From an uncultured Nitrososphaerales archaeon (lineage in GTDB: Archaea > Thermoproteota > Nitrososphaeria > Nitrososphaerales > Nitrososphaeraceae), in the NCBI GenBank assembly GCA_963709405.1, contig CAVPXM010000021.1, positions 224,001 to 288,000 on the forward strand: a stretch of DNA of 64,000 bases, given 5' to 3'. The notes below the pieces were generated by a model. That model saw nothing but the letters and a program-made list of their open reading frames with translations, made no database searches and was not told where the DNA came from. Each line of letters begins with the position of its first letter. Position 1 is the stretch's first letter. A program made the translations under genes and the position numbers. Of this stretch, positions 58,488-61,771 are shown in pieces.

Positions 58488-58769
58488 TCAGTTAGTGGGC
58501 TTGATTTCATCTAGTTTCAGTTGTCTTGACTTTTCTTGTTCGTCCAACTTTTTTAATGTCTTATAATGATCAAATATAATGGATAGGAAGATTGGCTGTA
58601 TTCTTATAGGACTAGCGGCATAAGAACACGCTGAATTATACAAACGTTCAATTGAAAACATTCTATCAAATAACTTCTTGTCAGATCTGCCAAGACAGTT
58701 GCGAAATTCCTTCCATTCTTCCTTTTCTACTAAGGTTGCTAATCTAAATGATGGAATTGTTCTACCCAT
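58488..58769 (-). CDS. small protein resembling the PolB2-associated family (arCOG07300-like)
   Basis: MGRTIPSFR....E..EW..FR..L...DK..FD.MF...RLY.SA recalled family signature. Confidence 0.7.
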   Translation of the reverse strand: MGRTIPSFRLATLVEKEEWKEFRNCLGRSDKKLFDRMFSIERLYNSACSYAASPIRIQPIFLSIIFDHYKTLKKLDEQEKSRQLKLDEIKPTN

Positions 58770-59033
58770 ACTGATTTACCCGCGTTGATAGACCCTGGGA
58801 TGCTAATTAAGAAGCTGGATGTCGGGTGAGAGGGAGAGAGTGACTATTGCTACTGCTACTACTACTGAAATCTAAAGATGAGCGTTAACTTTTATGCTGG
58901 AATTAATCCAGCCTGTGTAGCGTGGATAGGGTATGAATGAATTGTGAGTGTCAAACTATAGGATTAAGTTGTGGACATCTATTAGGTAGGCACAGGCTTT
59001 GTAGTGCGTGCTCTAGAGTCATTTTTTCTTTGA

Positions 59034-59080
59034 ACGATTCTTATCTATAGAATGCGTGCATTTGGCGCGCGGCCAAGACT
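59034..59080 (+). repeat. direct repeat copy 1 (bipartite dyad) left of the CRISPR array
   Basis: ACGATTCTTATCTATAGAAT-N9-TGGCGCGCGGCCAAGACT. Confidence 0.75.
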
Positions 59081-59349
59081 TACATAGATATGAAGGTTTC
59101 ATCATAGATGTCTGAGTTACGATGACGTAAATTGCTATCCTGCAGGTATTTGCTTTACGTTCTATATGTATAGATCATCACTGTAACTGGAAAAATGAGC
59201 ATGAGCACGACTCAACTTTCCCGTCATCTTTTCTCGATCAGAACCTTGTTATAATTTGAAAGATCCAAATTCAATCAATCATCAAAAGGTAAAATATTTC
59301 GCAGATCAGTATAAAATCTGACTTAGAACCTATCCGAAAAGTAGTTGAG

Positions 59350-59566
59350 GTTGTAATTTGACTAATATAGGATTGGAATAATGACTAGGCGGTATACATC
59401 AAACCCCGCCTAGATGGTTGTAATTTGACTAATATAGGATTGAAACGTCACTAATGAGAACAAAACAAGTAATGCGAGAAAATGTTGTAAATTGACTAAT
59501 ATAGGATTGAAACATCATGAAAGAAGTAATGTTAGATATCGAGGGTGAACCGTTGTAATTTGACTA
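59350..59566 (+). CRISPR. orphan CRISPR mini-array: 3 full repeats, 1 truncated repeat, 3 spacers
   Basis: 30-bp repeat GTTGTAATTTGACTAATATAGGATTGAAAC at 59350 (2 mismatches), 59417, 59484 (1 mismatch), and the first 15 nt at 59552; unique spacers of 37, 37, 38 nt; ATTGAAAC 3' end; no cas genes in window. Confidence 0.92.
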
Positions 59567-59882
59567 TTTAGTCAACAGGGGACTAGCCAGATGGAATCCA
59601 TCAAGAATATTTCACAACCTAAGAATACTAAAGTTCCGTTAACCCTGAGTTTGTACTTGAGATCTATCCCGATAAGTACGTGTAGCCAGAGTTAATCAGA
59701 AAGTTACCTATTTGAGTTAGTTAGATCTGCCATCCATCTGCATGTAGCCGGCCGGATTATATCTTTTTTATGAATTAGGATCTTAACAAATATGCTGACG
59801 AATAGACGCTTAGGAATTCAGATCATTATTCCATTGAGCGGAAATAAAAGAAGACCTCGCTTAAGAATGTAGGAAAAAATAT

Positions 59883-60053
59883 TCAATCAGCAGTTCCACC
59901 ACATGCACAGTAACCTAATTCGTCTATTCTGCAGTTGCAGAATTGGCGATATCCAAACAGATCATAGCTCATTTCCCATGATTCCTTCCCAAATTTGTAT
60001 AAATGAATATTAATCTCATCAGGAATTAATTGCGAAGATTCATTTTTATTCAT
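59883..60053 (-). CDS. small Cys-rich (Zn-finger-like) protein, 56 aa, missed by ORF track
   Basis: MNKNESSQLIPDEINIHLYKFGKESWEMSYDLFGYRQFCNCRIDELGYCACGGTAD; paralog at 35630-35773 keeps the same frame. Confidence 0.7.
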   Translation of the reverse strand: MNKNESSQLIPDEINIHLYKFGKESWEMSYDLFGYRQFCNCRIDELGYCACGGTAD

Positions 60054-60217
60054 TATATTACAATTAAAAAATAAACGCTATATTATATTTAAATTCGATA
60101 TTCTCCCGGTCTACGAAAATAATGTAGAGCTATTATAACATTTCCAGTACAATCTTTTCCCATGCGTTATTAATTACAAGTATCACGTCAAGTTATACAA
60201 CCTCTTCGCATCGCCGG

Positions 60218-60263
60218 ACGATTCTTATCTATAGAATTAGGTATCTGGCGCGCGCCCATGACT
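60218..60263 (+). repeat. direct repeat copy 2 (bipartite dyad)
   Basis: ACGATTCTTATCTATAGAAT-N8-TGGCGCGCGCCCATGACT. Confidence 0.75.
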
Positions 60264-60348
60264 AACTCACATACAGACTACCTGATTAATGTCTAAATAC
60301 ATCGAATCAAAAACAGTCTATATAGGTAAAGTCTCATTTTAGAAAATA

Positions 60349-61402
60349 GATCTCTTGCGTAATTAGCAGTTATGATCTATTAATGCTGCCTATTTTGACT
60401 GTATTCTTAGATTGAAATCCTGTTAGACTGCATCACTCTGAAGTTCAGTATACCGGATACAATATCAGATATGTTATTGTACCTTCTTAGTTTGTTTCTG
60501 AACTTAATACCCATTATTCCAAACTTCTTGATCTTGCATATGGTGTGTTCTACTATCTATGATCCTGAGTCTTGAGTGATTCTTGTTGTATCTCATATCG
60601 TCATTTGAAAGCAAGGTATTCTTTTTCTTTCTAATGGGAAGTACAGACTTTACTGTGGGAAAGTCCTTTTCAATACCAAGATAACCAAGATCAACTATAT
60701 TGTCAACTTGTGATGGAGTTATAGTAGGATGATTGTGTTTGTAAATGTCATAATCATGTTGTTTTCTTCCATTCCTGTGACCTGTCTTATGCAGGATCAA
60801 ACCTTCAGTATTAACCATCAATTGTGTCTTGACAGTATGTTTCCTCTTTCTACCTGAATAGTAACTCTTTCTCTTTCTCTTGTTCTTAGGTCTTGGAATC
60901 TCCTGTTCTGTAGAGTCTATGAAAGCCTTGAATCCAGGGAAGGACTGTTCAACTTCCTCTATAGTTCTTAATCTCTTAGTACGTTTGTATATCTTCTTTG
61001 GCAATGGAATACACTCCTTTAGCAAAGATTCTAGGATAGTCAAATCTCTAAATACATTGCTCTGGTCAAGATCAAATAGAAATCCCGATAATGCATATGT
61101 AATGTACAATCGATAATAAACCAAAAGCATTAGAAGTCTTTCTCTTGGTTTCAGTTTAAACGGTCTACCGGCACCAACATCTCTTTTCCTCTTCCTTTTA
61201 GAAAGACGTCTTCTTTCATATTCCTCATATTTCGAGTCCATTTCTGTGCTTATTTGATCAAATTCTGGTACAGTTAGTCCAGTAAGTGACCTGAATAACA
61301 AAGGCTTTTTGCATAGTCTTCTATATGACATCAAAGAGATATCACATAAATATCCTATATGACGTCGAATATAGCTGTAAGCTTCTAATTACGCAAGAGA
61401 TC
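60349..61402 (-). mobile_element. IS5-family (ISL2-like, DDE_Tnp_4) element; transposase 61334 to ~60430 with a frameshift near 60555
   Basis: Perfect 18-bp TIR GATCTCTTGCGTAATTAG / CTAATTACGCAAGAGATC flanked by TA; GAGRPFKL, IDSTEQEI.RP, YSG.K.KHTVK.Q, DLGY.G. Confidence 0.92.
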
Positions 61403-61576
61403 TAATGTTTATAATCTGATATGATGCATATCGTATTAGAAGACGCTTTTTCCGATATAATTATTATGGGATTTCATCAGAATTCCAGTTTTGTCGACAT
61501 GGATCATGATCCTATTAGGGTAATAATTCTCACATAAAGCGTAAAACTTAACTCCTCGATAAATTACTATCTTTTA

Positions 61577-61771
61577 ATGACTCTAAGCTTAAACTGTAAG
61601 GATGCTGGTGATCCAGTATGCACACACACTATGTATGGTGAAACAGAAGAAGAATTACTACAAAATGCAAAGAAGCACGGTATCGAAGTTCATGGATATA
61701 ATGAACAGACGTGGAACGAAGAAATATCTAAAAATAAAGACCATTTCCTCAAACTCATGAAAAGTTCGTAA
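61577..61771 (+). CDS. DUF1059 family small metal-binding protein
   Basis: C.D.G...C.....GETEEELL....KH....HG. Confidence 0.82.
   Translation: MTLSLNCKDAGDPVCTHTMYGETEEELLQNAKKHGIEVHGYNEQTWNEEISKNKDHFLKLMKSS

Follow-up and report, generated by a model that had tools for sequence, protein, structure and literature searches.

How a three-spacer CRISPR array reached its present place in an archaeal genome is the question raised by one locus in the window analyzed here, a 64,000-nucleotide (nt) stretch of an uncultured Nitrososphaerales archaeon (C21:224001-288000, contigs of the assembly being numbered with C). The assembly comprises 4.83 Mb in 100 contigs and is 91% complete. An initial annotation, made from the sequence alone, placed the array and a small Cys-rich gene between two direct dyad repeats and proposed that this 1.2-kb block is a mobile, Cas-less guide cassette, integrated rather than eroded in place. 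Here, we conclude that the array is probably one copy of a decaying mini-array family, which a transposase of the IS5 family of insertion sequences (IS) spread to approximately 15 places in the genome. Direct support for this reading comes from the copy family itself, the junctions with IS ends, the target preference of the IS, a target-site duplication, the cas gene inventory and the divergence figures.

Three full 30-nt repeats are present on the plus strand of the window (59350-59379, 59417-59446 and 59484-59513; consensus GTTGTAATTTGACTAATATAGGATTGAAAC), and their start-to-start spacings of 67, 67 and 68 nt leave spacers of 37, 37 and 38 nt. Such regular direct repeats with a period of 67-68 nt agree with the usual definition of a CRISPR array (repeats of 23-47 nt separated by spacers of similar length), and the array coordinates given previously (59350-59566), together with the repeats and spacers, proved correct. 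Repeat 1 is degenerate, having 2 mismatches to the consensus and ending in ..GGAAT with the handle ATTGGAAT, repeat 2 equals the consensus, and repeat 3 has 1 mismatch. The first spacer (B, 59380-59416, plus strand) contains an 8-bp GC-rich hairpin, CTAGGCGG/CCGCCTAG, whose loop varies among loci. The second (C, 59447-59483, plus strand) is also found at C21:92602 and C59:11027, and the third (D, 38 nt, 59514-59551, plus strand) at C21:92534, C40:9118, C55:151270 and C63:86471. The array closes on the same strand with 59552-59567, comprising a truncated fourth repeat, GTTGTAATTTGAC (59552-59564), and the triplet TAT (59565-59567). As RNA, the repeat is predicted by folding to be unstructured. 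The AT-rich stretch described earlier as leader-like does precede the array, but no leader or promoter is conserved among the loci: homology begins approximately 25-35 nt before repeat 1, the only common sequence upstream of that repeat is a 24-bp IS end, and the DNA beyond it is unrelated.

Coverage of the locus in read runs was examined through the contigs of four runs. Contigs of rhizosphere run X1 bridge both sides of the array, one extending from the left flank into repeat 1 (59150-59366) and the other from the array into the right flank (59445-59772), which speaks for a real locus. More broadly, of the words sampled from the stretch, a fraction of 0.36-0.62 was found in each of approximately 18 runs from soil or rhizosphere, which belong to 14 coded studies.

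The array belongs to a family. A genome-wide search for the repeat gave 36 matches at ≤3 mismatches, as against 0 for a reversed-pattern control, and at ≤7 mismatches the matches formed 16 clusters, namely 15 loci of 1-4 repeats and a five-repeat array on contig C46 whose repeat differs from that of the mini-arrays at 7 of 30 positions. A k-mer scan of the genome for regularly spaced repeats returned nothing beyond the mini-arrays, the array on C46 and tandem repeats in coding sequence. The search for further copies of the repeat, which had been suggested as a check, has thus revealed 15 scattered loci. Approximately seven spacer modules recur among them, designated A (actcttcatctgag...), B (the hairpin), F, G, C, D and E, and their order is constant: A-B-B-E on C30, A-B-E on C50 and C97, A-B-G/C-D at C55:151308, B-F-D on C40, B-C-D in the window and B-C on C59. 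A fixed spacer order of this kind is what would be expected if all loci derived from one ancestral array after differing internal deletions. The flanks of the 15 loci are unrelated and unique right up to the IS end, so that homology between the window copy and the other loci begins at this end and stops at 59566.

Outside this genome, the mini-array repeat was found only twice, each time with different spacers. Among 151 genomes of the family it was detected in two, the genome itself and the congener G065, which carries a single one-spacer orphan array with a different spacer. A JGI metagenome contig (L032, Ga0182008_10008529, minus strand, approximately 560-700) bears a two-spacer orphan array with an identical repeat and unrelated spacers, and a related orphan mini-array is located in another congener (G002:C111:4824-5128). 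The L032 array likewise ends in GTTGTAATTTGACTAA, without any IS, and the truncated terminal repeat may therefore predate the IS insertion. A cas-linked array with the exact mini-array repeat was not found in the 151 family genomes or in the JGI metagenomes.

Since the same repeat is associated with different spacers in G065 and in the metagenome contig, it must be regarded as an authentic CRISPR repeat, one whose arrays formerly gained spacers, and the window array is a genuine CRISPR-type repeat-spacer array. It might be argued that the units are tandem binding sites for a transposase or another protein and merely resemble CRISPR, given that they always stand beside IS ends, that all three window spacers recur at other loci and are thus not the unique foreign sequences expected of spacers, and that the match of the repeat to Rfam CRISPR-DR2 is below threshold (24 vs 37 bits). 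We consider this very improbable in view of the 30-nt repeats, the 36-38-nt spacers, the ATTGAAAC 3′ end, the 23/30 identity to a cas-linked repeat in the same genome and the different spacers just mentioned, and also because IS copies without arrays are likewise without these repeats.

The junctions of the arrays with IS sequences provide the key to their dispersal. The shared upstream 24 bp (GAACCTATCCGAAAAGTAGTTGAG; 59326-59349 on the plus strand of the window, in the position of a leader) is the terminal inverted repeat of IS copies of 930-990 bp, and the 16-mer core of this terminal repeat has 128 matches at ≤2 mismatches, adjoining TAA or TTA. Eleven of the 15 loci begin with such an IS end, whose tip points outward beside TAA or TTA and whose base 24 is fused to the first base of the first repeat. 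At the opposite side, the truncated repeat GTTGTAATTTGAC leads through TAA directly into an IS end at nine of the 15. Two IS subtypes are involved. Type 1, whose transposase pieces match DUF4096 and DDE_Tnp_1 or DDE_Tnp_1_2, is present in exactly six copies in the genome (≥93% alike); in all six, the IS meets the truncated repeat at one and the same nucleotide and with a single orientation, and the remainder of the repeat is not found on the far side of any. Transposase reading frames were broken or fragmented in the type-1 copies examined. Type 2, with eight full-length copies and additional fragments, adjoins arrays twice, in the opposite orientation.

The target preference of the IS family offers a rationale for these junctions. 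TWA (TAA or TTA) lies beside 100 of 104 IS ends, and the next three bases outward follow (G/T)A(C/T); GAC precedes TWA at 22 of the 104, compared with a genome background of 0.8%, which is an approximately 26-fold enrichment. Examples of IS ends at a (G/T)A(C/T)|TWA target with a 3-bp duplication are C13:87768, C46:55014 and C61:74349. The CRISPR repeat itself reads ...TTTGAC-TAA-TAT..., and because it contains GAC-TAA, every repeat presents a preferred target of the IS, which accounts for the independent insertion of two IS subtypes at one and the same spot. For the six type-1 copies with identical junctions, judged from their sequences, a single insertion followed by joint movement of array and IS appears to be the better explanation. 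In agreement with this, the outer IS end on the array side is inverted relative to the IS's far end, as in a composite transposon, and this layout is intact at C55:150265-151582 (type 1) and C63:38133-39264 (type 2). The window copy retains only the left end, and no such IS is left in it.

Even so, the window copy preserves the trace of its own insertion. A TTA at 59323-59325, preceded by GAC (59320-59322), forms the left target-site duplication, and a TTA at 59568-59570, followed by GTC (59571-59573), forms the right one, so that a transposed unit of 242 bp (59326-59567) is enclosed by TTA on both sides. Without the unit, the site would read GAC-TTA-GTC, the palindromic consensus target of the IS family. 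That the right TTA equals the outer left TTA, and not the inner TAA or TAT, fits transposition of the whole unit, and the TAT found where other loci have TAA and an IS is the likely scar left by subsequent loss of an IS. The earlier view that the array was integrated is therefore borne out by the IS end and the TTA duplication, but the boundaries of a 1.2-kb cassette are not those of the inserted unit. The proposed search for an empty site with a single dyad copy in relatives yielded none, the array flanks being unique to their own genome and absent from six congeners. No contig joining 59325 to 59568 was found in the four runs, which has little weight as contigs drop rare variants.

Based on these observations, we infer the following order of events, including co-transposition of array and IS. 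An ancestral array, its spacers arranged as A, B(n), F, G, C, D/E, would first have had a 24-bp IS end joined to its first repeat. Another member of the IS family (type 1) would then have entered GAC|TAA within a repeat, the preferred target of the family, so that inverted IS ends flanked the array and the whole piece could move as a composite transposon. In the window, the composite would have landed in GAC-TTA-GTC and duplicated TTA, and subsequent loss of the IS, leaving TAT, would have produced the 242-bp unit 59326-59567. Later, spacers would have been lost via repeat-repeat recombination, and substitutions would have accumulated at approximately the rate of dead IS copies.

The dispersal pattern also bears on whether a larger, cas-linked host array once resided at the window locus and has since eroded, the other loci having arisen by segmental duplication. 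The genus does seem to have lost its adaptation genes (Cas1 in none of seven genomes), a full type I-B locus, including Cas1 and an array of 41 repeats, is present in a Nitrososphaera metagenome-assembled genome (MAG), and orphan arrays of 1-2 spacers with the same repeat persist in G065 and the metagenome contig. However, flanks that are unrelated up to the IS end at 15 loci are incompatible with segmental duplications, the window unit lies inside a target-site duplication at a consensus IS target, and the window contig has no remnants of the four cas families searched for. Erosion of a resident array is thus unlikely.

The cas inventory of the organism is informative in several respects. Cas1, Cas2, Cas6 and Cas7 had no match on the contig of the window in a search of the whole assembly for these four families, and to that extent the earlier statement that no cas genes occur in the 64 kb holds. 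The check for cas genes elsewhere in the genome led to a type I-B interference module on C46, in the order cas6 fragment, array (five repeats and four unique spacers), cas8b, cas7, cas5 and a fused cas3, the matches of cas8b and cas5 being weak. The five repeats of the C46 array are identical; the mini-array repeats differ even within single arrays. The two kinds of repeat agree at 23 of 30 positions, their last 13 nt being equal save the final base, and both this kinship with a cas-linked repeat and the 3′ handle ATTGAAAC/G support the previous assignment of the mini-array repeat to a class 1, type I-B-like system.

The only cas6 in the assembly is a 146-amino-acid (aa) open frame that corresponds to the C-terminal part of the model. 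The first approximately 900 bp of this contig (C46:1-1350, L013) are GC-rich and look unrelated, with an ABC-transporter ATPase fragment and an Arg/Pro/Ala-rich frame, in contrast to the AT-rich remainder, and they end inside cas6; the truncation of cas6 is either an assembly chimera or real. Neither Cas1 nor Cas2 was found in the whole assembly, and Cas1 was detected in none of seven genomes of the genus (G000, G002, G020, G033, G044, G055 and G065; 75-96% complete), of which two (G000 and G020) have type I-B Cas7. The Nitrososphaera MAG has a 53%-identical Cas7 within its full locus, and the repeat of its 41-repeat array is identical to that of C46 at 28 of 30 positions. Judging from these gene contents, the lineage appears to have a reduced type I-B system from which the adaptation genes are missing, and, with no Cas1 or Cas2 found, the cell would be unable to add spacers.

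An acquisition-less effector with dispersed arrays raises the possibility that the mini-arrays are functional. According to this explanation, the mini-array is a useful cargo of the composite, and CRISPR RNAs (crRNAs) released by host Cas6 are loaded into the Cas1-less type I-B effector for attack on competing mobile elements, for soaking up of effector in the manner of RNA anti-CRISPRs, or for gene repression through partial matches. Several features are in line with it: an array is physically coupled to the transposon in all six type-1 IS copies, the genome encodes a type I-B effector together with Cas3 and the 3′ parts of the repeats are alike, 28 of 36 repeats retain an intact ATTGAAAC handle, contigs from an RNA library extend over the array, hairpins resembling spacer B outside arrays (C63:86052, C30:43397 and L015) could serve as partial-match targets, and virus-borne mini-arrays of like logic are described in a review (PMC11656645).

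Other observations argue against function. No protospacers were detected in the own genome or in six congeners. IMG/VR contained no match to the repeat or to the B pattern, nor to exact cores of A, C, D, E and F, and the JGI metagenomes held no protospacer for the B pattern; such exact-match scans would miss diverged targets. The spacer-target check proposed earlier thus came out negative for both the host genome and viral data. Spacer seeds (the first 11-15 nt) had genome matches at chance level only, which does not support seed-only self-targeting. In addition, there is no conserved leader or promoter, the sole cas6 is a C-terminal fragment, and the repeat agrees with the cas-linked one at only 23 of 30 positions, unlike the repeats of known mobile mini-arrays, which match that of their host. 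The repeats, including the handle, diverge like the pseudogenized IS. Mean pairwise differences per site were 0.051 for the type-1 IS, 0.01-0.10 for spacers, 0.117 for repeats and 0.096 for the IS-end leader, and mismatches to the repeat consensus amounted to 3.5% in the 8-nt handle and 4.5% elsewhere. Divergence similar to that of the IS, differences between repeats of one array and the lack of protospacers together favor neutral decay.

With regard to expression, contigs of one soil RNA library (X20) cover 59156-59611 and are absent from 59612-60067, where DNA runs continue; being contigs from one study, they were not used as evidence. No cover on the array was seen in the contigs of X19. 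Read-through transcripts of the arrays could in principle be cut and loaded by the C46 type I-B module, although nothing shows that this occurs or is under selection. Overall, we regard an IS-borne guide cassette with such a function as doubtful, and consider it slightly more doubtful still that approximately 15 copies of working IS5-borne cargo, including the loop-variable hairpin spacers, with their resemblance to hairpin elements elsewhere in Nitrososphaeraceae genomes, supply fixed guides to this acquisition-less effector.

Spacer B deserves separate consideration. Its 8-bp GC hairpin has a predicted folding energy of -13.2 kcal/mol (z -4.65), and the arms and flanks show 0.055 differences per site as compared with 0.44 in the 12-13-nt loop. 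The loops can be sorted into a few groups of related sequences, and on C30 two B units that differ from each other stand in tandem. Rfam contains nothing that matches the hairpin. A bridge-RNA-like pairing between loop and flank was considered and rejected, as there was no match of ≥10 nt within 3 kb of the own locus and only scattered 9-mers were found. Hairpins with the arms of spacer B (GACTAGGCGG-loop-CCGCCT...) are also located outside arrays at C63:86052 (plus strand) and C30:43397 (minus strand). The former is approximately 430 bp away from a mini-array of the other strand and is embedded in a longer inverted repeat (ACAAGGATT...AATCCTTGT), and a hairpin with the same arms and the same 3′ ATG after it is present in a different genus (G219, L015:1375-1401). 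It may be that the ancestral array held several B-type spacers derived from a family of hairpin elements and that each descendant kept a different one; alternatively, the loops may be subject to specific hypermutation.

Several points weigh against the proposed dispersal and decay of the family by an IS5-family transposase. The outer duplication can be checked at three loci, the window (TTA/TTA), C55:150265-151582 and C63:38133-39264 (both TAA/TAA), and since insertion of the inner IS alone yields the same TAA triplet at the latter two, the window copy is the one that discriminates. The IS-end leader is missing at four loci (C13, C21:92572, C50 and C97), and two of them (C50 and C97) start at base 1 of the repeat within unrelated flanks, for which the model needs a further, unspecified rearrangement. 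Moreover, the exact fusion of the 24-bp IS end to the first repeat is not explained by the model, and a B loop approximately 8 times more divergent than the rest does not fit plain neutral decay of the copies. That divergence looks neutral across a few dozen short sequences tests function only weakly, and the RNA-library contigs on the array point to possible transcription, with ends and strand that are not readable and possible DNA carry-over. Finally, run X1, although it looks independent, may be the source sample of the assembly.

The initial annotation had taken two direct copies of a dyad element to be the boundaries of a 1.2-kb mobile cassette (59034-60263). These copies exist as described: 59034-59053 equals 60218-60237 (20/20), the copies being 1184 bp apart, and each 20-mer is followed by a GC-rich palindrome (59060-59090 vs 60243-60273, 77% over 31 nt), for whose TGGCGCGCG.. 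core the reported 16/18 identity is valid. The 56-aa Cys-rich open reading frame (ORF; 59883-60053, minus strand), convergent with the array and supposed to be the second cargo, also exists. Both features are indeed enclosed by direct copies identical in their first part. However, the 20-mer has 16 matches in the genome at ≤3 mismatches, at unrelated sites and in several cases with the GGCGCGCC part at equal spacing, which removes it as a boundary; the initial annotation had itself named such an occurrence at many unrelated sites as refuting its proposal. Furthermore, the right copy belongs to a dispersed element split by an IS, the other 14 mini-array loci all have neither dyads nor the Cys-rich gene nearby, and copies of this gene, in the own genome and in six congeners, never occur with an array. 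The Cys-rich gene therefore cannot be counted as cargo, and a dyad-bounded cassette is highly improbable. The bracketing dyads are a coincidence of two neighboring dispersed elements, and the gene is an unrelated neighbor.

The left dyad (59034-59083, plus strand) consists of the TATA-like 20-mer and the palindrome GGCGCGCG, which form the head motif of a dispersed element family. The right dyad and the adjoining first half of such an element (60218-60345, plus strand) are interrupted by an IS. In its full form, the element is a non-coding sequence of approximately 230 nt, with a TATA-like box (TTATCTATAGAAT) and the GGCGCGCC palindrome at its start and two more TATA-like boxes. BLAST detected 37 copies of its tail and 7 of its head. 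Intact copies (for example C6:32881-33038 and C26:54491-54660) join homologues of 60240-60345 and 61404-61460; further positions are 60218-60345 plus 61404-61500 in the window and C86:48050-48203. The element may represent a small RNA gene with a promoter, or a miniature inverted-repeat transposable element. The interrupting IS (approximately 60345-61407, minus strand) encodes a DDE_Tnp_4/HTH_Tnp_4 transposase (ORF 60504-61334), is present in ≥10 copies of 97-99% identity and is unrelated to the array. The Cys-rich ORF, also unrelated to the array, belongs to a multi-copy small-protein family of the genus: it has four paralogous loci in its own genome (80-83% nt identity), is the sole part of 58780-60340 that is conserved in all six congeners, often in several copies, had no match to any Pfam family and falls among Nitrososphaerota clusters of hypothetical small proteins.

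Other features of the surroundings are as follows. A 93-aa ORF (58488-58769, minus strand) without a Pfam match has approximately eight paralogous loci (79-94% nt identity; on C14, C19, C50, C5, C36, C40, C42 and C54), the stretch being rich in repeats. A contig of the RNA library X20, approximately 3% diverged, joins 58874 to 59159 and bypasses the 284 bp with the left dyad (58875-59158); a related strain may lack or have replaced this segment, and the contig was not used as evidence. Downstream of the split element, 61577-61771 (plus strand) encodes a 64-aa DUF1059 protein, with paralogues at C6:61371, C38:68559, C74:2160 and C21:1070.

Orphan arrays are commonly attributed to decayed loci, to cargo of viruses or plasmids, or to off-target spacer integration. 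Dispersal by an IS5-family transposase would add another route, described here with junctions at nucleotide level, in which an IS prefers a site within the repeat, captures the array between its ends and scatters it. Array counts and spacer-based linking of hosts and viruses would be inflated by such copies, since the 15 apparent arrays of this genome amount to one. The locus also shows the physical coupling of CRISPR arrays and transposons that is the assumed starting point of guide-using transposons. If the copies are expressed, they would bear on the use of a fixed guide set by a Cas1-less type I-B effector, and working IS5 cargo, if true, would be the first CRISPR guide system borne by an insertion sequence. 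A limited full-text literature search gave no description of CRISPR mini-arrays carried or dispersed by insertion sequences; a 2020 study by Shmakov and colleagues is reportedly entitled 'CRISPR arrays away from cas genes'.

To date, the closest parallels are virus-borne mini-arrays, such as those of the Saccharolobus portogloboviruses SPV1 and SPV2, and single repeat units on mobile elements, as presented in the review cited above (PMC11656645), in which neither 'insertion sequence' nor 'IS5' occurs. Like the viral mini-arrays described there, the present ones have 1-4 repeats, lack cas genes and reside on a mobile element in a host with a class 1 effector. Unlike them, they are carried by an IS5-family composite transposon, number approximately 15 per genome and look neutral, their repeat is 7/30 off the cas-linked repeat of the host, and exact-match searches found no spacer target. 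Within Thaumarchaeota, Krupovic et al. (2019, PMC6563490) reported stand-alone arrays and type I-B loci that reside on integrated mobile elements, and they also noted that IS5 had expanded to 43 copies in a Nitrosocosmicus genome. Those arrays come from the same archaeal group, have the same type I-B kind of repeat and are likewise without cas genes on mobile DNA. However, they have 69-96 spacers, are carried by conjugative elements, have repeats identical to the host array and are still gaining spacers, whereas the window family is tiny, fixed, multi-copy and tied to an IS.

A comparison with transposons leads to a similar picture. As in composite transposons, inverted IS ends surround a passenger, the target duplication is short and copies are found at unrelated sites; in contrast, just 24 bp remain of one 'IS', a CRISPR array serves as passenger, and the full-length IS copies are pseudogenes, so that movement would need transposase supplied in trans. 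In the Tn7-like CRISPR-associated transposons (CASTs), too, a transposon is physically linked to a short array that stays fixed, and the host or element acquires no spacers. Different from CASTs, the mini-array family is associated with a plain DDE transposase of the IS5 family and with cas genes located off the element (Tns families were not searched for), and its insertions follow the GAC|TWA preference, with no spacer matches near insertion sites. Taken together, the mini-array family differs from known systems in having spacers without detectable targets, an imperfect match to the host repeat, a high copy number and a plain IS as its carrier.

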